A stretch of DNA of 51,413 nucleotides from Candidatus Udaeobacter sp. (GTDB lineage Bacteria > Verrucomicrobiota > Verrucomicrobiia > Chthoniobacterales > UBA10450): NCBI GenBank assembly GCA_049802315.1, contig JBARMF010000042.1, positions 1 through 51,413 of the forward strand. Direction: 5' to 3'. Positions 1,573-38,192 of this stretch are shown piece after piece. A program made the translations under genes and the position numbers. Positions within the stretch are counted from its first letter, which is position 1; each line of letters opens with the position of its first letter. The notes beneath the pieces were generated by a model, which did not search any database, was not told the origin of the DNA, and saw nothing but the letters and a program-made list of their open reading frames with translations.

Positions 1573-3120
1573 ATGACCACTCCGGTAACTGAGACGCCTG
1601 CTAGCGATCAAAACTTCGTTCGTGGGCTTGGCTTGCTCGACTCCACGATGTTAGTGGCCGGCTCGATGATCGGTTCGGGAATTTTCATTGTGTCGGCGGA
1701 TATTGGGCGGCTGGTTGGCTCGGCTGGATGGTTGCTTGTGGTGTGGGCCGTCACGGGCGTGCTCACCGTTGTCGCTGCGCTCAGCTACGGTGAGCTCGCT
1801 GCAATGATGCCTCGGGCCGGCGGCCAATATGTTTATCTGCGCGAGGCGTACAGTCCGTTGTGGGGATTTCTCTATGGCTGGACGCTGTTCCTCGTGATCC
1901 AGACCGGCACAATTGCTGCGGTCGCAGTGGCGTTCGCGCGATTTCTCGGCGTGTTAACTGATTCAGTTTCGCCGACGCAATGGATTGTCTCGCCAATCAC
2001 GCTCTCGCAGCGCTACGCCATCAGCCTTTCCACCCAGCAACTAGTCGCAATCTTGATTATCGTTCTCCTGACGTTCGTAAACACGCGTGGATTAGCGCTG
2101 GGTAAGCTGATCCAGAATGTTTTTACCTCCGCGAAGACGTTGTCACTGATGGCGTTGATCGCGCTGGGCATTTTTGTGGGACGCAACGCCAATGCATTAC
2201 ATGCTAATTTCACGAATTTCTGGACGCCGGCCGCGGCTTCTCCGATCACATCGGATCTGCCGTTCGTCAGTGCTGTTTCTGCGGCTGGCGGCGCGCTTGG
2301 GATGCTGATCGCAGTTTGTGTTGGCCAAGTCGGTTCGCTGTTTTCCTCGGATGCCTGGAATAACATTACGTTCACCGCTGGTGAGGTGCGCGAGCCGCGG
2401 CGAAACATTCCGTTGTCGCTTCTATTCGGCACCGCGTTGGTTATTACGTTGTATCTGCTGGCGAACGTGGCTTATCTCTGCGTGCTCCCGTTGGAAAAAA
2501 TCCAGCACGCTCCGGACGATCGCGTCGGCACTGCGGCGATGGAGGTAATGTTCGGCGGCGCAGGCGCTGGGATAATGGCGGTCGCCATCATGGTCTCTAC
2601 ATTCGGGTGTTGTAATGGACTGATTCTGGCAGGAGCGCGTGTGTATTACGCAATGGCGCTGGATGGGTTGTTCTTTAAAGCAACAGCACGGCTCAATTCG
2701 AAACACGTACCTGCCACCGCTCTCGTGATGCAAGGAATCTGGACTGCGGTGCTGGTGCTCCCGCGCACGCGAAACGTTGATACCACAAGCGGAGCCGTGA
2801 GCTACGGTAATCTTTACAGTAATCTGTTGGACTACATTATCTTCGCCGCTCTAATTTTTTACGTGCTGACGATTGCAGGGATATTCGTGCTTCGCCGAAC
2901 GCGGCCAGATGCCGAACGTCCGTACCGCGCATTGGGTTACCCGATTTTGCCGGCGCTTTACATGGTCGGTGCTACGGCGATCATGCTGGTTCTGCTGGCC
3001 TACCGAGCACAAACGACGTGGCCGGGCCTGGTGATCGTGTTGACCGGTGTCCCCGTTTATTTCCTCTGGAAAAACGCAAATCAAACTCGAAGCGGAACCG
3101 GGCAGCCGCCCGCTGGCTAG
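1573..3120 (+). CDS. APC-family amino acid permease
   Basis: 515 aa with about 12 predicted hydrophobic segments. The N-terminal GSMIGSGIF and GELAAMMPRAGGQYVYL motifs are typical of amino acid/polyamine/organocation transporters. Confidence 0.85.
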   Translation: MTTPVTETPASDQNFVRGLGLLDSTMLVAGSMIGSGIFIVSADIGRLVGSAGWLLVVWAVTGVLTVVAALSYGELAAMMPRAGGQYVYLREAYSPLWGFLYGWTLFLVIQTGTIAAVAVAFARFLGVLTDSVSPTQWIVSPITLSQRYAISLSTQQLVAILIIVLLTFVNTRGLALGKLIQNVFTSAKTLSLMALIALGIFVGRNANALHANFTNFWTPAAASPITSDLPFVSAVSAAGGALGMLIAVCVGQVGSLFSSDAWNNITFTAGEVREPRRNIPLSLLFGTALVITLYLLANVAYLCVLPLEKIQHAPDDRVGTAAMEVMFGGAGAGIMAVAIMVSTFGCCNGLILAGARVYYAMALDGLFFKATARLNSKHVPATALVMQGIWTAVLVLPRTRNVDTTSGAVSYGNLYSNLLDYIIFAALIFYVLTIAGIFVLRRTRPDAERPYRALGYPILPALYMVGATAIMLVLLAYRAQTTWPGLVIVLTGVPVYFLWKNANQTRSGTGQPPAG

Positions 3121-3138: not shown

Positions 3139-4647
3139 ATGGCAGGTTTATTCGCAAGAAAACCGTTGGAGCGGCTGATGACCGAGGCGCAGGACGTCGG
3201 CGAACATTGCCTCAAACGGTCCCTCGGGCCGGTTAATTTGGTCATGCTGGGTATTGGAGCAATCATCGGGGCGGGTCTGTTTGTGCGAACTGCCGCGGCA
3301 ATTGCCGATCGTGCGGGTCCTTCAGTCGTGCTCGCGTTCGTCGTAGCAGGAATCGGCTGCGCGTTTGCCGGCCTGTGTTACGCCGAATTTGCCTCGATGA
3401 TCCCAGTTGCCGGCAGCGCCTATACTTATTCCTACGCAACGATGGGCGAACTCGTCGCATGGATCATTGGGTGGGATTTGATCCTCGAGTACGCGGTCGG
3501 CGCGGCGACTGTAGCAATCGCGTGGAGCGAATATGCAAATCGCGTCCTCGACTGGTTCGGCATGCGCATACCCTACCAATGGGCACACTCGCCCTTTGAA
3601 CACGACATCAATACCGGTGTTCACGGCATTATGAACATGCCGGCCGTGTTCATCCTACTATTGCTGACCCTGCTGCTGATTCGCGGTACCAAAGAATCGG
3701 CATTCGTAAATGGGATCATCGTGATTTTGAAGGTAACCATCGTGTTGCTCGTGATCGGCATCGGGTGGCACTTTGTGAATCCGGCGAACCACACGCCGCT
3801 CATTCCAGCGCCAACCACGTACGTCACACCACAAGGCATCAGCCACGCGTACGGAGGAATCCTCGGCATTCTCGGCGCGGCGGGCGTTGTGTTTTTCGCA
3901 TACATCGGGTTTGATGCGGTTAGCACGGCGGCGCAAGAGGCGCGAAATCCTAAGCGTGATATGCCGATCGGCATCCTGGGTTCTCTGGTAATCTGCACGG
4001 TGCTTTACGTGCTCTTCTCGTACGTCTTGAGCGGCCTCGCGACCGTCCAGGATTTCCGCAGCCATGGCCGGGAAGCATCCGTAGCATTCGCGATCACGAA
4101 ATACATGCCCGGCTTTGAATGGCTGTCGAAGTCTGTGACAGTCGCTATCCTTGCCGGCTTCTCATCCGTAATTCTCGTGATGCTGCTTGGCCAATCGCGC
4201 GTTTTCTATTCGATGAGTCGCGACGGACTTGTCCCGAAAACCTTTTCCGATGTGCACCCGAAATTTAGAACGCCGTACAAGTCGAACATTCTTTTCTTTT
4301 TGTTCACCGGCGCCTTCGGCGCATTCATTCCGGAGGACATCGTAGGCGAGATGACCAGTATTGGAACGCTTTTTGCCTTCATTCTTGTCTGCGCCGGAGT
4401 TTGGATCTTGCGTTCTTCACGTCCAGATCTCGAACGTGCATTTCGCGTACCCGCGGTGCCGGTTGTTTCCACGCTCGGCATCATCGTTTGCGGGGCGATG
4501 ATTTATGGTCTTGGCTGGACGAATTGGATGCGTTTGCTTGTTTGGCTTGTGATTGGACTGATCTTCTATTTTAGCTACGGCAAACGGCACAGCCGCATCA
4601 GCGCGCCACCACCGGAAATGCCCGAAGGCATTCAACTGACGCGCTAA
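3139..4647 (+). CDS. amino acid permease, cationic amino acid transporter (CAT)-like subfamily
   Basis: 502 aa and polytopic. IGAIIGAGLF and YAEFASMIPVAGSAYTYSY are characteristic of the CAT/YfnA-type APC transporters. It follows the previous permease after 18 nt. Confidence 0.85.
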   Translation: MAGLFARKPLERLMTEAQDVGEHCLKRSLGPVNLVMLGIGAIIGAGLFVRTAAAIADRAGPSVVLAFVVAGIGCAFAGLCYAEFASMIPVAGSAYTYSYATMGELVAWIIGWDLILEYAVGAATVAIAWSEYANRVLDWFGMRIPYQWAHSPFEHDINTGVHGIMNMPAVFILLLLTLLLIRGTKESAFVNGIIVILKVTIVLLVIGIGWHFVNPANHTPLIPAPTTYVTPQGISHAYGGILGILGAAGVVFFAYIGFDAVSTAAQEARNPKRDMPIGILGSLVICTVLYVLFSYVLSGLATVQDFRSHGREASVAFAITKYMPGFEWLSKSVTVAILAGFSSVILVMLLGQSRVFYSMSRDGLVPKTFSDVHPKFRTPYKSNILFFLFTGAFGAFIPEDIVGEMTSIGTLFAFILVCAGVWILRSSRPDLERAFRVPAVPVVSTLGIIVCGAMIYGLGWTNWMRLLVWLVIGLIFYFSYGKRHSRISAPPPEMPEGIQLTR

Positions 4648-16624: not shown

Positions 16625-16760
16625 GCTCCTGCAAACTGATACCTGGAAGCGCTTCTGACAACCAACGAAAGTGGTCTGGCAAAGCATAAAACCGTTCTTG
16701 GCGTTGAACCTTGGATGTTCGGCATTCTGGAGTAAGAAACTTGAAGAGAATCTGCCACGG

Positions 16761-18101
16761 ATGACCACACTTACCCAGCCTGCTTCGGTTAAGTCTGCAC
16801 CGCCCAGGCGGACCATCGGCTTCGTGACCGCGTGCGCGATCGTGATTTCCAACATCATTGGCACCGGCATCTTCACGAGCCTTGGCTTTCAATTAAATGA
16901 TATTCAGTCTGGATTCGCGCTGTTGATGCTCTGGGTCATCGGTGGAATTGCTGCGCTCTGCGGCGCGCTCTGTTACGGTGAACTCGCCGCTGCAATGCCG
17001 CGTTCCGGCGGCGAATACCATTTTCTCTCGAAAATTTATCATCCATCGCTTGGGTTCATGGCGGGATTCGTCTCTGCTACGGTTGGATTTGCAGCGCCTG
17101 TTGCACTCGCCGCGTTGGCGTTTGGGCAATATTTCAACGGAGTTTTCGGCGCCGGTTCGCCGCTTGTTCTGTCGTTCGTAGTTGTTTGGATAGTCACGGT
17201 TTTCCATGTGGTGAATCTGCGAGTCGGGAGCGTATTCCACAATGTTTCGACGCTCGTGAAATTGCTTCTTGTCGGCGCGCTGATTGGCGCGGGCTTCTTC
17301 GTTCCATCAAAACAGCCGATCAGTTTCTTGCCTGCCCCAGGCGACAAAACCGCGATCCTCAGCGGGCCATTCGCGGTCGCACTCGTTTACGTGATGTATT
17401 CCTACTCCGGTTGGAATGCGTCGGCATATATCAGCAGCGAGATCAAGCGACCTGAGAAAAACGTACTACGCTCCCTGCTCGCCGGCACCAGCTTGGTGAT
17501 CGTGATTTATGTGCTGCTGAACGCCATCTTTCTCGCGGCCACGCCTGCGGAGGAATTGAAAGGCCAGCTCGAAGTCGCCTTAATCGCAGGTAAACACATT
17601 TTTGGCGAAAACGGCGGGCGATTTGCCGGCGCTATCATTTGTCTCGGCCTGGTTGCCGCCATCAGCTCGATGACGTGGATTGGGCCACGCGTGACCATGT
17701 CGATGGGCGAAGATCATTGGCTGCTGCGATGGCTCGGCGGGAAAAATAAAAATGGCATCCCCATAAATGCCATTTTCCTGCAACTGCTCTTCGTGAATCT
17801 ACTTCTGCTGACCCAAAGCTTCCAGAACGTGGTCCGCTACACGCAATTCAGTTTGCTGCTTTGCTCGTTGCTTGCTGTGCTGGGAGTGATCGTGCTTCGT
17901 TTCACGCGTCCCGAAATGACGCGACCATACCGGGTTTGGCTTTACCCCATTCCTCCTGTTGTTTTTTCGGTAATCACGATTTGGATGATGTTTTATTTAT
18001 TGCGCTCGCACGCTGCCGAATCGCTGGCCGGTTTAGCAACGGCGCTGTTGGGTCTGCTAATCTATTTTTGCGCGCAAAAGCGCCGTGATCGCTCGCCATG
18101 A
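16761..18101 (+). CDS. APC-family amino acid permease
   Basis: The track ORF starts at 16671. The ATG at 16761 (MTTLTQPAS...) is the more plausible start. Has NIIGTGIF and GELAAAMPRSGGEYHFL motifs and is polytopic. Confidence 0.8.
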   Translation: MTTLTQPASVKSAPPRRTIGFVTACAIVISNIIGTGIFTSLGFQLNDIQSGFALLMLWVIGGIAALCGALCYGELAAAMPRSGGEYHFLSKIYHPSLGFMAGFVSATVGFAAPVALAALAFGQYFNGVFGAGSPLVLSFVVVWIVTVFHVVNLRVGSVFHNVSTLVKLLLVGALIGAGFFVPSKQPISFLPAPGDKTAILSGPFAVALVYVMYSYSGWNASAYISSEIKRPEKNVLRSLLAGTSLVIVIYVLLNAIFLAATPAEELKGQLEVALIAGKHIFGENGGRFAGAIICLGLVAAISSMTWIGPRVTMSMGEDHWLLRWLGGKNKNGIPINAIFLQLLFVNLLLLTQSFQNVVRYTQFSLLLCSLLAVLGVIVLRFTRPEMTRPYRVWLYPIPPVVFSVITIWMMFYLLRSHAAESLAGLATALLGLLIYFCAQKRRDRSP

Positions 18102-29637: not shown

Positions 29638-30186
29638 CTAGGAGAGATCGCGCAGCAAAAGGTCCTGGTATTTTTGCTCCAGCTCGTTGTAACGCTGTTG
29701 GCTCTCGGCCAGTGCGCGGCGTTCTTCCTGAAGCGTTTGCTCAAGATCGCGAATTCGTTCGTGGAGACGACCGGACATTTTCGCTACGCTCGGCCCGACA
29801 GGATCGCCAAGTTGAATTTGGAATTGGTTCTCGTCGGCCTCTGACGGCGCGGTTTCCCACAGGTCGGGCATTTCCCGGACTTGACGGCGAGTACCGTCAC
29901 AACTGTTGATCACGACAGTTTCGCTATCAATTTCGCCGAGCCGAACAAATTCCCGCAAGGTACCGAGCGTCGTCGGTCCATAGTAATGCTCGCTTGTTAG
30001 CTCGACGAGCCAGTCCATGCCCAGCTGCGGTACCATCGGCGCTCTGACCCACGTCTGGCCGTCGCTCGATAGGGTGTCGTGCGGCGCGATCTGCGCCGCA
30101 GCGGCCCAACGCGTGATCTGGTCGAACTGCACCGGCCCGAAGGTGCTTCCGTCCTCGTGCTTGCGAAGAAACCACTTTTGGTTCAC
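29638..30186 (-). CDS. GYF_2 (DUF4339) domain protein with C-terminal coiled coil
   Basis: 182 aa. WFLRKHEDGSTFGPVQFDQITRWAAAAQIAPHDTLSSDGQTWVRA matches the GYF_2 pattern. A second, weaker copy follows, and the C-terminus is heptad-rich. Confidence 0.6.
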   Translation of the reverse strand: MNQKWFLRKHEDGSTFGPVQFDQITRWAAAAQIAPHDTLSSDGQTWVRAPMVPQLGMDWLVELTSEHYYGPTTLGTLREFVRLGEIDSETVVINSCDGTRRQVREMPDLWETAPSEADENQFQIQLGDPVGPSVAKMSGRLHERIRDLEQTLQEERRALAESQQRYNELEQKYQDLLLRDLS

Positions 30187-30204: not shown

Positions 30205-30699
30205 TTAAGGCGACGGCGAACTGGAAGCAGCAGGCGATGCCGTCGGAATCGTGATGGTTTGGCCGGCCTGCAACTTACGGCCGTCTTCGATGTGGTTGGC
30301 TTTTTGCAAATCGTCCACGGTCACTTTGTACATTTTCGCGATGGACGTAAGCGTTTCTCCGCGCGCAACAGTGTGCACGTTGCCTTCGACGGGGGAATGC
30401 GATGCAGATACGCCAGCAGCGGCAGAGGTTGCTGTGGCGGGCGCAGCTTCTCCGACCATTACACCCGGCCGAGCATGCGAGAGTTCTTGCTCTAGTTTGA
30501 GAATCTCTTGAGAAAGCGCATCGATCTTGACGTTTTGTTCGTCAATCTTTTTTGCCAAAGCTTCGAGTTGCACGGATTCCGCTCGTTTTCCTTCATGCGG
30601 CGCGGGCGTCTCCGCAAATGCAGTCCAAAGTGCGAGAGCGCTTATTGCGCAAAGAACACCGATTACTTTCATCTCATCGGAATTTTGCCACCGGGACAT
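30205..30699 (-). CDS. secreted LysM peptidoglycan-binding protein
   Basis: 164 aa with a signal peptide (start possibly the Met at 30672) and a coiled-coil segment. The C-terminal LysM is HTVARGETLTSIAKMYKVTVDDLQKANHIEDGRKLQAGQTITIP. Confidence 0.8.
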   Translation of the reverse strand: MSRWQNSDEMKVIGVLCAISALALWTAFAETPAPHEGKRAESVQLEALAKKIDEQNVKIDALSQEILKLEQELSHARPGVMVGEAAPATATSAAAGVSASHSPVEGNVHTVARGETLTSIAKMYKVTVDDLQKANHIEDGRKLQAGQTITIPTASPAASSSPSP

Positions 30700-30826
30700 T
30701 TATCTGACAAGCGGGTTCGCTGCGCTTAACCGTTGTTTTTGCAAGTGTTAACGAATCACCGCGCTGGTGCAATGATTCCGCGTGTCGGATGGCTTGCGTT
30801 TCGAACTTTTGCTCGTACGTTTTTTT

Positions 30827-31003
30827 ATGCCTGAGCGCATTCAAAAGCCGGCGGAACCGGCTCCGTGGGGACCAAAACAAGGCGATGGCGGTGGCCCGCG
30901 TTCGCCGGACGTTTCACGACCGGACACAAAGGATTTGTTAAAGAAAATGCGCAAAGTCGATCCCAACCAATCCAAGCGCTATCGCCAGCGCACCGGTCAG
31001 TAA
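30827..31003 (+). CDS. prokaryotic ubiquitin-like tag protein (Pup/UBact-like), 58 aa, C-terminal ...RTGQ
   Basis: This is the ATG-initiated part of track ORF 30782-31003: MPERIQKPAEPAPWGPKQGDGGGPRSPDVSRPDTKDLLKKMRKVDPNQSKRYRQRTGQ. It ends Gly-Gln and sits immediately 5' of prcB, with its stop overlapping the prcB ATG (TAATG). Confidence 0.7.
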   Translation: MPERIQKPAEPAPWGPKQGDGGGPRSPDVSRPDTKDLLKKMRKVDPNQSKRYRQRTGQ

Positions 31004-31827
31004 TGGACCGTTCACAGTTGGGATTTGACCAGATCTTTTCTGGTGCAGCGGATGATTTTCCTTCGCTGATGCGGCGCAAAGGTCTGCTTGGCCCGGCTGC
31101 CACCACTCCGATGCCGCAAAACGCGACGCAACAACAAACGTGGCAACCAACCGAGGCGACAACGATTCTTGCGTTCAAATTTTCCGGCGGTGTTCTGGTT
31201 GCGGGAGATCGCCGTGCGACTGCCGGTAACACTGTCGTCTACGATCGTGCGGACAAGGTTTTGGAAATCGACAGGCAATCGATAATGGCCATCGCCGGTG
31301 TGCCTGCGACCGCGTGGGAGATGGCGCGCGTGCTCGAACATTCCCTCCAATATTTTCGGCGAACTCAGCTCCAGGAGATGAGTGTCGACGGCAAAGTACG
31401 AGCGCTCTCGAAGTTATTGCGCGACAATTTCGGGTTAGTCATGCAAGGCGTAGGCATTGTTGTCCCGATCTTTGCTACTTACGACGGAAATTCGAAGCCT
31501 GAGGGGCGCCTGTACTTCTATGATGCAATGGGCGCGCAGTTTGAAGCGACCGATTACGCGGCGACGGGATCCGGCTCGCCTGCGGTCCGCGGCATTCTCT
31601 ATTATGAAAATTCCTGGGGCGCGAAGCGGCTGCATAAGCTGAACGAAGAGGAAGCGGTGTCGCTCGCTCTGCGCGCTCTCGATACCGCTGCGGAATCCGA
31701 TACCGCAACAGCGGGTGTAGATCGTGCCGGAAAGATTTTTCCTGTGATCAAGATTGTATCGCGCGAAGGCATCAACACTTTACCCGAGAGCAAAATCGCC
31801 GCCGTATTCAAAGAAATGGTTGCATGA
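31003..31827 (+). CDS. prcB: 20S proteasome beta subunit (bacterial PrcB type)
   Basis: The track ORF starts at 30865. I chose the ATG at 31003 (MDRSQLG...). A 52-aa propeptide is followed by TTILAFKFSGGVLVAGDRRATAGNTVVYDRADKV, which gives Thr1, Asp17 and Lys33 at canonical spacing. Confidence 0.85.
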   Translation: MDRSQLGFDQIFSGAADDFPSLMRRKGLLGPAATTPMPQNATQQQTWQPTEATTILAFKFSGGVLVAGDRRATAGNTVVYDRADKVLEIDRQSIMAIAGVPATAWEMARVLEHSLQYFRRTQLQEMSVDGKVRALSKLLRDNFGLVMQGVGIVVPIFATYDGNSKPEGRLYFYDAMGAQFEATDYAATGSGSPAVRGILYYENSWGAKRLHKLNEEEAVSLALRALDTAAESDTATAGVDRAGKIFPVIKIVSREGINTLPESKIAAVFKEMVA

Positions 31828-32603
31828 TCGAAGAGCCGTATCGTTGGGTCGAAGCCATCGCCAACCGGCGCGAATACATTGAAGGGCAGCTCGCCCCCGG
31901 TAGTCCCATCGCGGCGCTCGGTTACCGCGAAGGCATTCTGTTTGTCACGCTTGGTCAGACGCGCCAGAAACTTTTCGAGATCTACGATCGGATCGCAATG
32001 GGAGGGATTGGGCATCCTGGCGACATCGAGAGATTGCGAATGGCCGCGATTGAAATGGCCAGCACGGAAGGCTTCACTCGCTCGGCTGGTGATGTTTCAC
32101 TGCGGCGGCTCGCGCATTATTCGCTCAGTCCTGTCATGAAAAGCGCGTTCGAGCAGATCTATGGACCGCCTTATCTGGCGCGGATGCTTTTTGCGGAGGT
32201 GGGCGCACGCCCCGAGGACGATTTGTTTTTGCGCGTAGAATATGACGGCGAGATTGCGAGCAACGGCGCGACCTACGCGCGAGCGCGACAAGATTTTGCC
32301 GTGCTCAGCGGCACGCGCCAATCGGTCGAAATGATGGAAGCGTTTCTCAAAAGCGAGCACAAACCGGACGCCAGCTTTGAAACGGCAGTGAACTCGGCGC
32401 TCGACGCATGGAGCGTCGGGCACATGTTGTTGCAAGCCGGCGAAGCAAAAGAAGTTCCCGCGCGCGACGCAATCGCGCAACATCGCGAGGAACAACTCAA
32501 CATTGCCGCAATCGAAGCAGCAGTGCTCGAGCGCGATGGCAGCAGGCCAATTCGTTATCGTTCGTCAACAGATAAGGAATTGCGCTCCATCATTTCTCGG
32601 TGA
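31824..32603 (+). CDS. prcA: 20S proteasome alpha subunit (bacterial PrcA type)
   Basis: 259 aa with an ATGA overlap to prcB. GILFVTLG...KLFEIYDRIAMGGIG...YDGEIA...IEAAVLER resembles, from memory, actinobacterial PrcA (VLFVAEN...ISELYDRVGFAAAG...YDGSIA...LEVAVLD). Confidence 0.85.
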   Translation: MIEEPYRWVEAIANRREYIEGQLAPGSPIAALGYREGILFVTLGQTRQKLFEIYDRIAMGGIGHPGDIERLRMAAIEMASTEGFTRSAGDVSLRRLAHYSLSPVMKSAFEQIYGPPYLARMLFAEVGARPEDDLFLRVEYDGEIASNGATYARARQDFAVLSGTRQSVEMMEAFLKSEHKPDASFETAVNSALDAWSVGHMLLQAGEAKEVPARDAIAQHREEQLNIAAIEAAVLERDGSRPIRYRSSTDKELRSIISR

Positions 32604-32641: not shown

Positions 32642-33439
32642 ATGAAACGAGCCATCCGGAATGTGCTTGGGGTCGTGGGCTTGTTGTTGATGATCGCCTC
32701 GCTTATCTGGATTTCGTTTCATCAACAGATACATCCGGCGATTCCTAAGGAATCAAAGTCAACTCAGCCGCAGACATCCAAACCATTTGCAGTAGTGGTT
32801 CTTGATCCAGGCCATGGGGGTAAAGACTCCGGCGCAATGTGTGGCGGAGTCATGGAAAAGGATCTGACATTGGACATTGCGCGCCGCGTCGAGCGGCTCC
32901 TCGACTCCGAAGGTGTCGCCACATTGATGACCCGGGTCGGCGACAGCTACGTCTCACTGGCGGATCGCGCGGCGTTCGGGAATCGGGCGAAAGAAAGCAT
33001 TTTCGTTAGTATTCATTTCAACGAAGACAACAAACCGGTCGCGACCGGTGTGGAGACTTATTATGCTGCGCATCAGATCAACTCAGACTCTACTTTCGCT
33101 TCCTGGCTCCCGTTTTTCTCGCGGCCGCCGTCCAATTCGCCCAAGCCCGAAAGCCAAACTCTCGCCGGTTTCATTCAGGAAGCGCTGGTGGTACGGACCC
33201 GCTCCGTCGATCGCGGGACGCAAGCCAAACAATTTTTTGTTATTGCAAACGTGACTTCTCCCGCGGTGTTGATTGAGGGAGGATTTATTACGAACAAGGA
33301 CGAACTTTCAAAACTTGTGAGCGAGGACTATCGCGACCAATTAGCGGCAGCGGTTGCCGACGGCGTTCTGCGATATCGCGACGCGTTGAGTCAGCGGAAA
33401 TCAGCAGTGGCAGCTACAGGTCAGAAGGGCACTGAATAG
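32642..33439 (+). CDS. N-acetylmuramoyl-L-alanine amidase (Amidase_3, AmiC-like)
   Basis: 265 aa with a TM/signal anchor. Has the VVVLDPGHGGKDSGA, SIHFNE and VLIEGGFITN motifs. Confidence 0.9.
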   Translation: MKRAIRNVLGVVGLLLMIASLIWISFHQQIHPAIPKESKSTQPQTSKPFAVVVLDPGHGGKDSGAMCGGVMEKDLTLDIARRVERLLDSEGVATLMTRVGDSYVSLADRAAFGNRAKESIFVSIHFNEDNKPVATGVETYYAAHQINSDSTFASWLPFFSRPPSNSPKPESQTLAGFIQEALVVRTRSVDRGTQAKQFFVIANVTSPAVLIEGGFITNKDELSKLVSEDYRDQLAAAVADGVLRYRDALSQRKSAVAATGQKGTE

Positions 33440-33459: not shown

Positions 33460-34212
33460 ATGACCATGAAAATCACAACTGCCGCGGTGATCTTCATGGG
33501 ATCAATGATGTTAATGCGAGCCGACCAACTCGTTGAGAGTGTGCAACAGGCTCTGAAGGACGAAGGTTTTTACTACGGCGAAGTCAACGGCGACATGAAT
33601 GCGAATGTGACTGCAGCGATTCGCCGGTATCAAATTCGCAACGGTCTGCAGGTTAGCGGCGAGCTGAATGATGAGACGCTGCGATCGCTCGGAATTAAAT
33701 CTTCCGGGTCCTCGTCGCGCTTAACGACCAAATCTGCGTCACCGACTCCTGCGACGGGGGCTGTGTCCGGCGAACCTCCTTCCGATGAGACGGAAGCCGC
33801 AAGTCCCGCCCCTCCGGTTCAGCCTTTCGGTAACGCCTCACAGGGCCAGCAGGTTTTTCCCTCGACTCCCATGGGGCCGGCCGGTTCGCCGGGGACGGTT
33901 TTTGCCGACACGCCGTTTCAGACCGCGCCTCCCGCCGTTCAACGCAATGTGATTGTCTCGGCGCAAATCGTTCTCGCACGGTCTGGACTATATCGTGAAC
34001 AAATTGACGGAATCTACGGACCCGCGATGGAATTCTCCCTTCGTGCCTACCAGGCGCGAGCGAGACTGCAGGTGACTGGCCGGCTAGATCTGGAAACCCT
34101 CGCGGCGCTGCGCTTGTTGCCCGGGCCGCGCCAGCAGTTTTCTAATCCCTATCGCCAGCGCATGCGTCCAATGCCTGGGCCGCCGGTTCGCGGTCAATGG
34201 GAGCCCGACTAG
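33460..34212 (+). CDS. secreted protein with two PG_binding_1 peptidoglycan-binding domains
   Basis: 250 aa. LKDEGFYYGEVNGDMNANVTAAIRRYQIRNGLQVSGELNDETL and LYREQIDGIYGPAMEFSLRAYQARARLQVTGRLDLETL are joined by a Pro/Ser-rich linker. Confidence 0.8.
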   Translation: MTMKITTAAVIFMGSMMLMRADQLVESVQQALKDEGFYYGEVNGDMNANVTAAIRRYQIRNGLQVSGELNDETLRSLGIKSSGSSSRLTTKSASPTPATGAVSGEPPSDETEAASPAPPVQPFGNASQGQQVFPSTPMGPAGSPGTVFADTPFQTAPPAVQRNVIVSAQIVLARSGLYREQIDGIYGPAMEFSLRAYQARARLQVTGRLDLETLAALRLLPGPRQQFSNPYRQRMRPMPGPPVRGQWEPD

Positions 34213-34214
34213 TC

Positions 34215-35033
34215 TTATTTTGGATTATCGAAACGGACCGACTGCAACTCCGCGAAAACTGTGCCCACGAAAATCTGTGCGTCGATGCGAAGGATCAGCC
34301 GCTCGGCATCGTCTGACACCCAGATTGTGGCACGACGAAATTTCTTGTGCGGCTCTAATTCGAGATGTTTTCCGATGTGTTTAAGTCGCAGATCAAGCTT
34401 GATCGCGTTGTAAGTGCCGGCGCGCACGGAGATTTTTTCTCGTCCAATCACGGTCACGGTGGCCAGGTAAGCGTTTGTTGCCGCGTAAATCGCGACGGGA
34501 TAAACGCTCCCTTGTTTGAGGGGCTGACTGCGGAGGTAAAGCGCCGCGGAGTGCAAATCGAACAAGTTAGGTAGTACGAAGTCGCGCGTGGTTGTCTTGG
34601 CGGCGGTCCCTTCGCCCTCGGTTCGTACTCGAGTCACTCCACTATTGGTGAAGGTCAGATGGGTGGCGATTTTTTTTGATCGGTAGCTTTCGGTTTGCTG
34701 CGTTTCGATGGGAGCCAGCGTTTGGGAGTTCGCAAAGGCGCGATACGTGACATCCAGTTTCCACAACGCCCGGACGAAGCCCATGGTTCGGCCTGTACCT
34801 TCGAGTTCAAACTTGTCGTTCGATGGCTTGGTGAAGTGAACTTCACCGGTGGCCGCGGTCACTCCAGACCAGCCAAAGCGATAAAACGCCCGCAGAGGGC
34901 GCAACTCTGGAAAATTCCCACGGGACTCCTTGTTAAGCGCTGCCTGCCAATCCGCAGCGAACGTACCGGCAGCAGACGGGAGCACGATCGTAATCGCGCA
35001 TATCGTTATTCGGAGTCGGGATCGAAAAAGCAT
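34215..35033 (-). CDS. DUF3108-like secreted beta-rich protein
   Basis: 272 aa with a signal peptide. The pattern (FYRFGWSGVTAATGEV..., DLHSAALYLRSQPLKQG, IWVSDDAERLILRI) fits my recollection of DUF3108. Not verified by search. Confidence 0.5.
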   Translation of the reverse strand: MLFRSRLRITICAITIVLPSAAGTFAADWQAALNKESRGNFPELRPLRAFYRFGWSGVTAATGEVHFTKPSNDKFELEGTGRTMGFVRALWKLDVTYRAFANSQTLAPIETQQTESYRSKKIATHLTFTNSGVTRVRTEGEGTAAKTTTRDFVLPNLFDLHSAALYLRSQPLKQGSVYPVAIYAATNAYLATVTVIGREKISVRAGTYNAIKLDLRLKHIGKHLELEPHKKFRRATIWVSDDAERLILRIDAQIFVGTVFAELQSVRFDNPK

Positions 35034-35093
35034 TCTTTGGAGGTTCGCAACTGCTCACGACCATCGGCGTGTCAGCAATTGATTTCATCCGTA

Positions 35094-35127
35094 CAAAAAA
35101 ATACACGCGAGTTTTCCCCGCGTGTAT
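35094..35127 (-). terminator. rho-independent terminator downstream of skp
   Basis: On the minus strand, a 9-bp stem (atacacgcg / cgcgtgtat) with a 9-nt loop is followed by a T7 run (plus-strand A run at 35095-35101). It begins 22 nt after the skp stop. Confidence 0.6.
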
Positions 35128-35148
35128 CTTTGAAATTCGCGGCGAACC

Positions 35149-35793
35149 TCAGGGCTTCGTTGCTCTTGCTGCTGCCGGGGTAACGGACGCGCCTGCTGCA
35201 GGCCTCCTCGCCGAAGTTGTAGCGCGACCCGGCTTGTTTAGGACTTCAATGATTTCGTTTGTGAAATCAACGTTTTCCGGCGCGTACAGCACGACAGGAA
35301 CCCCATTGATGCTGACGCCCGATTTATCCAGCACAAAATCGAGGTTCTTGGTTTTGACTTTCTCTATGACGACGTCGGTGATTTCCTTCACAATCCCCTC
35401 GCGCATTCGCATCAATTGCTCCTGCAACTGACGCTCCCGCGTCTGACGGAAGTCGCTGATCTCGCGTTCCATGTTTTTGATGTTGGCGATTTTGTCATCG
35501 CGCTCCTTGGCCATGCCTGTCTTTTTGTCCGCGCTCAATGCCGGGGACTCAAGCTGCTTGTTCAGATTGTTGATTTCATCGAGCGCCTTCTTGTAAGCTT
35601 CCGCCCTGTCATCGTATTCCTTTTTGGCGGCGTTTTTGGCGTCGTTGATTTTAACCTCGGCGTCCTTGGTTTTAGTGTAATCCTTAAACGCTCGCTGCAT
35701 ATCGACTGTTCCAATTTTGGCTGTGCCCTGTGCGAAGGCCACAATTGGAGCAACCAGCGTCAGCGCAAAGAGTATTGACAGAGACTTTTTCAT
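35149..35793 (-). CDS. skp: OmpH/Skp periplasmic chaperone
   Basis: The track ORF runs to 35853. I chose the ATG at 35793 (MKKSLSILFALTLVAPIVAFAQGTAKIGTVDMQRAF...). It has a long charged coiled-coil arm and lies directly downstream of bamA. Confidence 0.85.
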   Translation of the reverse strand: MKKSLSILFALTLVAPIVAFAQGTAKIGTVDMQRAFKDYTKTKDAEVKINDAKNAAKKEYDDRAEAYKKALDEINNLNKQLESPALSADKKTGMAKERDDKIANIKNMEREISDFRQTRERQLQEQLMRMREGIVKEITDVVIEKVKTKNLDFVLDKSGVSINGVPVVLYAPENVDFTNEIIEVLNKPGRATTSARRPAAGASVTPAAARATKP

Positions 35794-35849
35794 AAAAACA
35801 GATGATACGGTTGGACGAATCGGGTTAGAGTGCAACCACATATATTCGT

Positions 35850-38192
35850 TCAAAATTGGTAGCCCACGTTGAAGTTGAAATGGCCGCCGCCATTGTAGCC
35901 GTCACGCATGATCGGATATCCGTAATCGAGGCGTAGTGGCCCGATCGGCAAATCAAGCCGGAGGCCTACACCGATATCCGAGGCCATATGATTGAAGCCA
36001 AAAGACCACGCGCTGCTATTCACAAAACCTGTATCGTAAAAAACTGCGCCCCGCGCTTTTTCTATGATCGGGAAGGTCCATTCCAACGTCGCCCGCGCCA
36101 TTGATTGACCGCCAACCGGCTCGCCGTTTTCATCCTGTGGACCAACTTCGCGGAATGGAAAGCCACGGAGATTGTTCGAGCCTCCGAGGAAAAGCCGCTC
36201 ATAAATCGGCACCAGGTTGCCATTACCCCATTGGCTGACCGTCGAGATTTCGCCGTTGAGAAGCAGGATGGTATCCTTCGGCAAGCGGAAATACTGTGAC
36301 CCCTCCAGATCGAACGCGTAAATCTGGGTATCGCCGCCCAGAAAACCGCCGGCGATCATAGGCGAAAATGTGATGCGCTGCCCGCGGCGGGAGAGCAACG
36401 GATTGTCGCGCGAATCAAAGACGAGGCTCGCGAGGAGCTTGCTTTCAACGGACGATCCCTTTTGCGACTGAATGAATTCGGAGGCGGTCGGGTCCACGTT
36501 AAAGATGTCGATGTCCTGCAGCAGATATCCGAGGGTACCATACATGTATGCGTTGATTGGCTTGCGCAGCTCAAATGAGACTCCGTAATTGCGCTGGTCG
36601 TACACTGCGCTCAAGTAATTCGCCTCGGTGTAAAAAAGCTGGCCACCCAGCGAAAGACGTCGATCGAGAAAGTAAGGCTCGGTGATCGCTAGAACAAAAT
36701 CCTTTCGCTCTGTTCCATATTGAATACGTAACCGGAATTTTTGCCCCGCACCCGTGAACGACGGCCAGTTAAACAGGTCGAAATTGCCTTGGGTAAGTTC
36801 CGCAAATCCTACCAGTTTATCGACCGTACTGAAGCCACCTCCAAAACTGAGGGAACCAGTGCGTTTTTCCTGGACCAGAACTGTTAGATCTTTCCGGCCC
36901 GGTATATCTGTGTCTTCGGGATAAGTCTCGACCTTTGCAAAGTAACCCAGGTTCTCCAGACGCTTCTTCGTGGTGTCTACACGGACCGTGTTGAAAACAT
37001 CTCCCGGAGCAACGAGGACTTCACGGCGGATAACCTTGTCCTTCGTGCGCGTGTTCCCCTCAATGTTCACCCGATTCACAAACGAGCGGGGGCCTTCTTC
37101 GATAAGGTAGTGCACGTCTATGAGCGCCGGGCCGGCCGGCGTCCCTTCAGGTGTAATCACAAGATCGACGTAGCCCCCGCTGCCGTATGCGTCGGCAATA
37201 GCCTTGGCATCGTCGTGAAGCTGTTTCGGCGAGTAGACGCTGCCCTCTTTCATTTTTATGAAGGCGCGAACTCTTGCATCGGTGGTGTGCTCGTAACCGG
37301 TGATCGACAGTTTGCTGACGTGATATTGTGGACCTTCCGCAATCACGATCGTGATGATCATCGGGCCCTTTGCAGTGCGATCTTTGCGCACTTCCTTTAC
37401 TTCCACATCGATGAAACCGTGGTTTTGGTAGTACTCGCGGATCTTGTCCAGGTCCTGTTCCAACTGAACTTCATCAAGCCGACCGGTCTTATCCAAGAAA
37501 TAGATCAGCGTTCTTCCACGGGTTTTCATCTGTTTGCGTAATACCTTTTGGGTAATATGTGCGTTGCCCTCGAAACGGATCTGGCTTATCGCGCCTTTGA
37601 CGCCCTCGGTCACCGTGAAAACGGCGCGCGCCGTGCCGCGTTTCTCGTCGATTGGTTCCACGCGGAATTCGACGCTGACGTCGTTGTATCCCTTCCCTTG
37701 ATAAACTTCGATAATTTTCTGGCGCGCTTCCTCTAGTGCCTGCTCATTAACCGCCTGATTGAGTCTCACCTTCATCTCTTTGCGGAGTCTCTTCGGTTTG
37801 ACCCGTTCGGCGCCGTTGATTTCGATCTCGCGTAAGACCGAATTAGTTTGAACGGCAACGATCACCTTCACACCGTCGCCTTGAGACTGCGCAAATATTC
37901 GAACGTTTCGAATGTAACCAGTTCCGTACAGCGCCTTGATGTCCTCCTGCACGATCTCGTTTGAATAAATCTGCCCAACTTTTGTGCGCATCTGCGCCAG
38001 AATGCGTTCCTTGCTGATGGATGCAGGGCCCGTGTATTCCACGTCGATGGAGTGGATGACGGGAGGTCCCGGAGCCGATTGTGGCGCCTGTGGCGCCTGT
38101 GCCCGGACAGTTACGGCCGTCAAAAGCGCACAAAGGGAGGCGATCCAAATCGCAATCGGCGGGGGGCGCATCCATCCACAAAAACGTTGCAT
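35850..38192 (-). CDS. bamA: outer membrane protein assembly factor BamA
   Basis: 780 aa. A signal peptide and five POTRA-like repeats are followed by a C-terminal beta-barrel ending ...FNFNVGYQF with a terminal aromatic residue. Confidence 0.93.
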   Translation of the reverse strand: MQRFCGWMRPPPIAIWIASLCALLTAVTVRAQAPQAPQSAPGPPVIHSIDVEYTGPASISKERILAQMRTKVGQIYSNEIVQEDIKALYGTGYIRNVRIFAQSQGDGVKVIVAVQTNSVLREIEINGAERVKPKRLRKEMKVRLNQAVNEQALEEARQKIIEVYQGKGYNDVSVEFRVEPIDEKRGTARAVFTVTEGVKGAISQIRFEGNAHITQKVLRKQMKTRGRTLIYFLDKTGRLDEVQLEQDLDKIREYYQNHGFIDVEVKEVRKDRTAKGPMIITIVIAEGPQYHVSKLSITGYEHTTDARVRAFIKMKEGSVYSPKQLHDDAKAIADAYGSGGYVDLVITPEGTPAGPALIDVHYLIEEGPRSFVNRVNIEGNTRTKDKVIRREVLVAPGDVFNTVRVDTTKKRLENLGYFAKVETYPEDTDIPGRKDLTVLVQEKRTGSLSFGGGFSTVDKLVGFAELTQGNFDLFNWPSFTGAGQKFRLRIQYGTERKDFVLAITEPYFLDRRLSLGGQLFYTEANYLSAVYDQRNYGVSFELRKPINAYMYGTLGYLLQDIDIFNVDPTASEFIQSQKGSSVESKLLASLVFDSRDNPLLSRRGQRITFSPMIAGGFLGGDTQIYAFDLEGSQYFRLPKDTILLLNGEISTVSQWGNGNLVPIYERLFLGGSNNLRGFPFREVGPQDENGEPVGGQSMARATLEWTFPIIEKARGAVFYDTGFVNSSAWSFGFNHMASDIGVGLRLDLPIGPLRLDYGYPIMRDGYNGGGHFNFNVGYQF

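Follow-up and report, generated by a model that had tools for sequence, protein, structure and literature searches.

A UBact gene overlapping the 20S proteasome genes of a Candidatus Udaeobacter contig: a probable protein-tagging operon whose enzymes would be encoded elsewhere

We analyzed a 51,413-nucleotide stretch from Candidatus Udaeobacter sp. (GenBank assembly GCA_049802315.1, contig JBARMF010000042.1), hereafter called the window, in which a short gene for the ubiquitin-like protein UBact lies directly 5′ of prcB and prcA, the genes for the beta and alpha subunits of a 20S proteasome (Table 1). This three-gene module is preceded by 30.8 kb of the window and followed by 18.8 kb. Reading from the ATG at 30827 to the TAA yields the 58-residue peptide MPERIQKPAEPAPWGPKQGDGGGPRSPDVSRPDTKDLLKKMRKVDPNQSKRYRQRTGQ, the same peptide that an earlier note on this DNA had proposed as the product of a hidden gene. 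The gene is indeed masked in a mechanical list of open reading frames (ORFs), where its frame opens at a GTG (30782–31003), but it is not truly hidden: public gene callers detect it, in most cases adding a spurious stretch at the N-terminus, and near-identical proteins are already named UBact. The composition is as that note described, with a Gly/Pro-rich N-terminal half (9 Pro and 6 Gly in the peptide), a basic C-terminal half (the last 27 residues carry a net charge of +6; the whole peptide has an isoelectric point of 10.4 and a charge of +7) and a Gly-Gln end.

Table 1. Coordinates of the UBact–proteasome module and of other features in the window
Feature	Positions	Strand	Basis or remark
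UBact gene	30827–31003	+	58 codons plus TAA; C-terminus ...YRQRTGQ
prcB, 20S proteasome beta subunit, 274 residues	31003–31827	+	PF00227, TIGR03690 and PDB matches; propeptide 31003–31158; catalytic Thr1 codon 31159–31161
prcA, divergent 20S proteasome alpha subunit, 259 residues	31824–32603	+	phmmer and profile searches against PDB
UBact stop/prcB start overlap, TAATG	31001–31005	+	one shared base; prcB ATG at 31003
prcB stop/prcA start overlap, ATGA	31824–31827	+	prcA ATG at 31824; read from sequence
Promoter-like element	30794–30821	+	-35-like TTGCGT 30794–30799, 16-nucleotide spacer, -10-like TACGTT 30816–30821
Amidase_3 N-acetylmuramoyl-L-alanine amidase	32642–33439	+	Pfam; 38-nucleotide gap after prcA
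Protein with two PG_binding_1 domains	33460–34212	+	Pfam; 20-nucleotide gap after the amidase gene
LysM protein	30205–30699	-	just upstream of UBact
GYF_2-domain protein	29638–30186	-	between ABC transporter and LysM genes
DUF3108, OmpH and BamA genes	34215–38192	-	outer-membrane biogenesis cluster
Amino-acid permease genes	1573–3120, 3139–4647, 16671–18101	+	first two adjacent

The peptide is a member of the UBact family and not of the Pup family, because UBact models match it above their cut-offs and the Pup model does not match it. It scores 84.5 bits against NF033388 (ubiquitin-like protein UBact, an NCBIfam equivalog; cut-off 35) and 82.1 bits against Pfam PF20513 (UBact; cut-off 27.8), in both cases more than twice the cut-off, no other family model matches, and the Pup family PF05639 gives no match even at E≤1. 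The earlier note had called the peptide Pup/UBact-like and had likened it to the UBact variant; these scores support UBact and not membership of the Pup family. A profile built from 54 diverse UBact sequences found no Pup chain in PDB at E≤10, even though Pup chains are present there, and hhalign against Mycobacterium tuberculosis Pup returned a probability of 4.3%, with a sole alignment that is collinear at the C-termini (T.DLL...Y.Q..G[QE]). The two proteins carry opposite charges (+7 with an isoelectric point of 10.4 for UBact; -12 with 4.05 for Pup), and the peptide lacks the G-G-[QE] end and the acidic Mpa-binding helix of Pup: it ends T-G-Q, and its last 27 residues have a charge of +6, compared with -10 in the last 31 residues of Pup. 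Its relation to Pup is one of position, size and terminus only. A PADLOC scan of UBact, PrcB, PrcA and two upstream proteins gave no match and consequently no link to known anti-phage ubiquitin-like systems.

Close relatives of the gene are plentiful. In a 5.8-billion-protein collection clustered at 90% identity, we found 483 homologous clusters, the best of which are 91–100% identical across all 58 residues; proteins with 58/58 identical residues are named UBact by JGI, and near-identical ones, some of them from ‘Candidatus Udaeobacter sp.’, are labelled UBact at NCBI and JGI. A scan of one genome per species identified at least 580 UBact-encoding stretches. The 80 closest, all from metagenome-assembled genomes of Chthoniobacterales, were analyzed further, and the Chthoniobacterales comparison set comprises 82 loci (L001–L082), each reaching up to 10 kb either side of UBact. 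Long assemblies with this type of UBact include the 4.18-Mb chromosome OY969715.1, where the gene lies at about 400.9 kb, and the Mb-scale contigs CAVSMF010000001.1, JBJMXD010000006.1 and CAWFNX010000005.1. Across 73 distinct nucleotide sequences of the gene, variable sites are distributed over the three codon positions as 22/17/55, and the mean proportion of synonymous differences (pS) is 0.67 compared with 0.069 for nonsynonymous differences (pN), a pN/pS ratio of about 0.10; in the C-terminal half, pN is as low as 0.039. The UBact gene is under strong purifying selection.

Because conservation among relatives starts exactly at the ATG at 30827, this codon is the translation start. The public annotations of homologues range from 58 to 102 residues and carry N-terminal extensions, and the mechanical ORF list gives the longer frame in the window, which together leave room for a true product of 73 residues starting at the GTG at 30782, or for a short ORF that is only a non-coding leader of prcB. 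Such extensions, however, differ in both length and sequence, and all alignment columns are conserved from the Met onward; the GTG lies upstream of a conserved promoter-like block, described below; both UBact profiles start a few codons downstream of the ATG; and the codon-position pattern and pN/pS point to selection on the protein itself. Neither version is at all probable, and among the three alternatives considered in this work this is the only one that is effectively excluded. The far end of the gene is equally constrained. A survey of 90 sequences (the window and loci) found RTGQ or RTGE followed directly by a stop codon in 90/90, so that the start used yields the Gly-Gln terminus which the earlier note had made its prediction depend on. 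The more general R[TS]G[QE] terminus is found in 221 of 263 collected family members (RTGQ in 162, RTGE in 38, RSGE in 11 and RSGQ in 10). Six Chthoniobacterales loci (L007, L036, L051, L066, L067 and L082) end in RTGE and have close relatives that end in RTGQ, a switch of a single base.

We now turn to the proteasome subunits. PrcB scores 102.6 bits against PF00227 (cut-off 22.4) and 176.5 bits against TIGR03690, under the equivalog cut-off of 191.9, indicating that it is a divergent relative of its actinobacterial orthologues. Its best relatives in PDB are the PrcB chains of Rhodococcus and M. tuberculosis, whose mature residue 1 aligns with Thr53, and the propeptide is therefore 52 residues long; Asp17 and Lys33 of the active site are also present. 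In 84/84 sequences there is no change at Thr1, Asp17, Lys33, Gly47, the serine of GSG or, in D-x-A-T, the Asp and the Thr. An exact look-up of the window's PrcB in an assembly collection gave no record. With an intact Thr1 site behind a 52-residue propeptide, the 20S core should be proteolytically active, and apparently is. PrcA is more divergent, with 83.1 bits against TIGR03691 (cut-off 139) and 22.0 bits against PF00227, just under that model's cut-off. Despite these scores, its sequence is clearly homologous to bacterial alpha subunits: phmmer aligns it to the Rhodococcus and M. tuberculosis PrcA chains in PDB with E=5e-14, and a profile of 36 PrcA orthologues retrieves only bacterial PrcA chains from PDB, with E=4e-19. 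A single-sequence AlphaFold model of PrcA had a mean predicted local distance difference test score of 34, too low to use. The propeptide, the catalytic triad and both gene overlaps had all been read from the sequence in the earlier note, and all of them stand.

The stop and start codons of neighboring genes overlap at both junctions of the module, so that a single message would supply both the tag and the core. At the UBact/prcB junction, an identical -1 overlap with an ATG is present in 48 loci (window included), and the UBact-PrcB-PrcA order holds throughout the 82 Chthoniobacterales loci wherever the contig permits it to be read. From the overlapping codons, we infer that translation of UBact and prcB is coupled. 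A block of about 35 nucleotides directly before the UBact ATG is conserved in 69 loci (consensus CTTGC.TTTC.AA.TTTTGCTC.TA..TTTTTT.ATG), and no conservation extends upstream of about -40 in these loci. Within the block lies the promoter-like element of Table 1, whose -10-like hexamer is followed directly by TTTTT and then by the ATG. Its spacing is that expected of a sigma-70-type promoter, which would place the transcription start at the UBact ATG or within 1–2 bases of it; a consensus promoter scanner did not call the element. None of the three genes of the module is preceded in the window by a sequence that resembles a Shine-Dalgarno site. The message may be leaderless or nearly so, with reinitiation at both overlapping junctions. 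Rfam and tRNA scans of the whole window gave no matches.

Outside this lineage, the same three genes are found together with the enzymes expected of a tagging system. Two loci of a Verrucomicrobiae lineage (L086 and L087) have the canonical order Mpa-Dop-UBact-PrcB-PrcA-PafA, with a UBact that is 71% identical to the window's; L083 has a Dop fragment followed by UBact-PrcB-PrcA-PafA, and L084 shows the same order on a short, partly frameshifted contig. Related contigs carry some of these enzymes at another place, with Mpa-Dop units occurring in metagenome-assembled genomes labelled Chthoniobacteraceae and in related genomes. Dop homologues labelled Chthoniobacteraceae or Chthoniobacter exist, and both of those scanned (P0369 and P0358) pass the Dop equivalog cut-off. 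Dop follows an Mpa homologue in four Chthoniobacterales-type contigs, including a complete 7.8-Mb chromosome, directly in all but L094, where one small gene stands between the two; there is no UBact, proteasome or PafA gene within 10 kb in the four Mpa-Dop contigs. The Mpa-type ATPases of L086 (466–2190), L090 (8301–9953) and L091 (4366–6063) score 455–460 bits against TIGR03689, compared with a cut-off of 504.75. A 624-residue protein with a Lon_C protease domain is encoded directly downstream of Dop in two Chthoniobacteraceae contigs, L091 (7677–9551) and L092 (1908–3782). The NfeD genes near Mpa-Dop were compared with the NfeD gene of the window and are not its orthologues.

The best explanation of the locus, to which we assign a probability of roughly 75%, is a UBact tag operon with an active 20S core and Pup-like tagging, whose enzymes are encoded elsewhere. 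UBact would be a small basic tag, presumably disordered, and the Gram-negative counterpart of actinobacterial Pup. As the first gene of the operon, it would be synthesized together with the 20S core, probably through termination and reinitiation on a transcript that is probably leaderless. By analogy with Pup, a Dop homologue would deamidate the C-terminal Gln to Glu, and a PafA-type ligase would join the new side-chain carboxylate to lysines of the substrate proteins. Tagged substrates would then be captured by an AAA ATPase of the Mpa type and fed into the 20S core. The enzymes would be encoded away from the tag in this lineage, as the separate two-gene Mpa-Dop unit of related contigs suggests. 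This Pup-like reading is the best supported. It fits a terminus that does not vary, a last residue that is Q in some close relatives and E in others, and the presence of Mpa-Dop in the family.

Several results weigh against this explanation, beginning with the enzymes themselves. All window ORFs of at least 450 residues belong to other families, and no Mpa, Dop or PafA is found in the 51 kb; tblastn with the PafA, Dop and Mpa sequences of the other-lineage loci above gave no match in the window or within 10 kb of UBact in the 82 loci. Homologue searches, in which the Dop/PafA matches listed for the order are the best 120 (down to about 71% identity), contained no Chthoniobacterales PafA among those best 120 and, within the same scope, gave no evidence of Dop or Mpa in the genome from which the window comes. 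The docking of the ATPase is a second difficulty. The C-terminal GQYL of actinobacterial Mpa is its proteasome-docking motif, and the Mpa homologues of L086, L090 and L091 end without it, in SPVA, SHVI and GHVI, respectively. Further, the mechanism of Pup can be applied to UBact by analogy only, because the two share no significant similarity and are oppositely charged, and we found no demonstration of UBact conjugation in any organism in the open literature; nor did we find there any experimental study of UBact, which agrees with the earlier note's remark that the system has had almost no experimental characterization.

Considered together, the lack of enzymes near UBact in the 82 loci and the presence of Mpa-Dop alone elsewhere establish that the UBact-proteasome cluster is split in Chthoniobacterales. 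The module at the window locus is incomplete, with no ligase, deamidase or ATPase nearby. Clustering with Mpa, Dop and PafA describes a gene cluster and not a protein family, and its absence consequently leaves the peptide in the UBact family.

A split cluster also admits readings in which the chemistry differs from that of Pup. UBact might not be conjugated at all, and might instead act non-covalently on the co-translated 20S core as an assembly factor, gate regulator or adaptor, its ligase genes having disappeared or taken on other functions once the cluster was dispersed. Such a role would account for a tag that stays joined to prcB-prcA although none of the neighborhoods examined contains Mpa, Dop or PafA, for the missing PafA among the matches listed, and for Mpa homologues without the known docking motif. 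It does not readily account for an invariant RTG[QE] followed by a stop, a feature that a tag requires for conjugation and for which another explanation is hard to find, or for a terminal residue that alternates between Q and E among close relatives, as it does in Pup. Mpa-Dop units, with a Dop above the equivalog cut-off, also occur in the same NCBI family, and a complete bacterial proteasome, with all of its components, was reported for a published Udaeobacter genome (Brewer et al. 2016, bioRxiv 10.1101/053942). We regard this reading as very unlikely. Alternatively, a single Dop-like enzyme encoded beside Mpa could carry out both deamidation (or removal) and ligation without a separate PafA. 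Only Dop-class homologues appear for Chthoniobacteraceae among the best 120 matches listed, in some Planctomycetes Dop and PafA are reportedly represented by one homologue, and the two activities are reported to differ by few substitutions (Hecht et al. 2020, PMC7947786). A PafA, however, would be about 40% identical to Dop and would fall outside those matches, and the canonical Verrucomicrobiae cluster carries both paralogues. We consider a single enzyme highly improbable. Tagging in Chthoniobacterales without a classical PafA, whether because a Dop-like enzyme also ligates or because UBact acts unconjugated, is as a whole unlikely, and Pup-like tagging with enzymes encoded elsewhere in the genome remains the reading that we prefer.

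As the earlier note had claimed of the context, the module does not come from an actinobacterium; its host is a diderm, a Verrucomicrobium from soil whose nearest genomes are those of Ca. Udaeobacter (Chthoniobacterales). The diderm markers BamA, OmpH and TatC are encoded in the window, and many of the 80 closest UBact loci are labelled Ca. Udaeobacter (Verrucomicrobiota), which the NCBI taxonomy places in Chthoniobacteraceae, Verrucomicrobiota. In the closest of them (L014, Ca. Udaeobacter sp. SMAG_U5199), PrcB is 94% and PrcA 98% identical to the window proteins, and the neighboring genes are the same. The outer-membrane biogenesis cluster, which includes a BamA of 780 residues with five POTRA stretches, is convergent with the proteasome unit and conserved in L001 and L002. 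Udaeobacter is reported to be enriched in transporters and auxotrophic for amino acids, and the three amino-acid permease genes within the 51 kb fit both reports.

Genes related to the cell wall surround the module. No terminator-like site was called between prcA, the amidase gene and the gene for the PG-binding protein, and these two downstream genes may belong to the same transcription unit as UBact-prcB-prcA; they are not known parts of a tagging system. Counting the window, the LysM gene is kept in 76 loci, the Amidase_3 gene in 67 and the PG-binding gene in 71, and this neighborhood of UBact-PrcB-PrcA holds even where wider synteny differs (L001–L082). In several divergent loci, the PG-binding gene directly follows prcA, at the site that PafA occupies in the canonical cluster. 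Large ORFs beside UBact in divergent loci were considered as hidden ATPases or ligases and rejected: they encode TonB-dependent receptors, GlmS, a sulfite/nitrite reductase and a phosphofructokinase. A GYF_2-domain protein is encoded between the ABC transporter and LysM genes in 40 loci, including the window, and its gene is the immediate divergent neighbor of UBact in the out-group L085 (6623–7153). Eukaryotic GYF domains bind proline-rich peptides, and the N-terminal half of UBact is rich in proline; the shared neighborhood may be mere synteny. Frameshifts break genes in long-read metagenome contigs, namely those for the ABC transporter, PrcB/PrcA and BamA in L001 (ENA contig_92367) and for Mpa in L093 (8158–9886), and are probably assembly errors rather than pseudogenes.

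The earlier note was a correct recognition of a known system and not a discovery, because Pfam and NCBIfam models of the family exist, proteins with 58/58 identical residues are named UBact, and the Udaeobacter proteasome has been published. The split architecture and the conserved cell-wall neighborhood are minor additions to this knowledge, and the presumed nature of the UBact system is unchanged by this locus. To our knowledge, no proteasomal tagging system other than UBact-proteasome has been predicted for Gram-negative bacteria. In one of the most abundant lineages of soil bacteria, UBact and an apparently active 20S core have been kept under strong selection, and the locus agrees with a published proposal in which Udaeobacter, auxotrophic for amino acids, depends on the turnover of proteins. 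A plausible physiological role, proposed before for Udaeobacter, is the recycling of amino acids by an auxotrophic oligotroph. The compact three-gene module, if its enzymes are encoded elsewhere, is also a convenient unit for heterologous expression.

We last compare the locus with the systems already described. In 2017, Lehmann, Udasin, Livneh and Ciechanover reportedly described UBact from in silico work in Nitrospirae, Verrucomicrobia, Armatimonadetes, Nitrospinae and Planctomycetes. The window's protein resembles UBact as described in its small size, its Gly/Pro-rich N-terminal half and its basic, conserved C-terminal half ending in YRQR[TS]G[QE], and likewise in its site directly 5′ of prcB-prcA and in its Gram-negative host. 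The difference lies in the cluster: the one described is Mpa-Dop-UBact-PrcB-PrcA-PafA, whereas the window and the 82 Chthoniobacterales loci hold UBact-PrcB-PrcA only.

The Pup system of Actinobacteria shares with this locus a small tag that ends in G-[QE] upstream of prcB-prcA, proteasome subunits whose closest structural relatives are those of Rhodococcus and M. tuberculosis, Dop and Mpa homologues in related genomes, and the weak collinear resemblance across the C-terminal half of the tag. It differs in the lack of significant sequence similarity between the tags, in their reversed charge, in a terminus that is GGQ in Pup and TGQ here, in the diderm host, and in an Mpa that ends GQYL where the homologues of related Verrucomicrobia do not. 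In Plesiocystis and Rhodopirellula, Pup/PafA pairs are not linked to the proteasome (Iyer, Burroughs and Aravind 2008, PMC2588565). As in Chthoniobacterales, the neighborhood of tag, ligase and proteasome is broken there outside Actinobacteria, but in the opposite manner: in those genera the tag is found with its ligase and apart from the proteasome genes, whereas in Chthoniobacterales it is found with the proteasome and unlinked to the ligase. According to the same study, a PafA homologue invariably neighbors the gene for the tag. The Chthoniobacterales arrangement contradicts this generalization, and the locus thereby offers a small correction to the view that a tag gene always sits beside its ligase.

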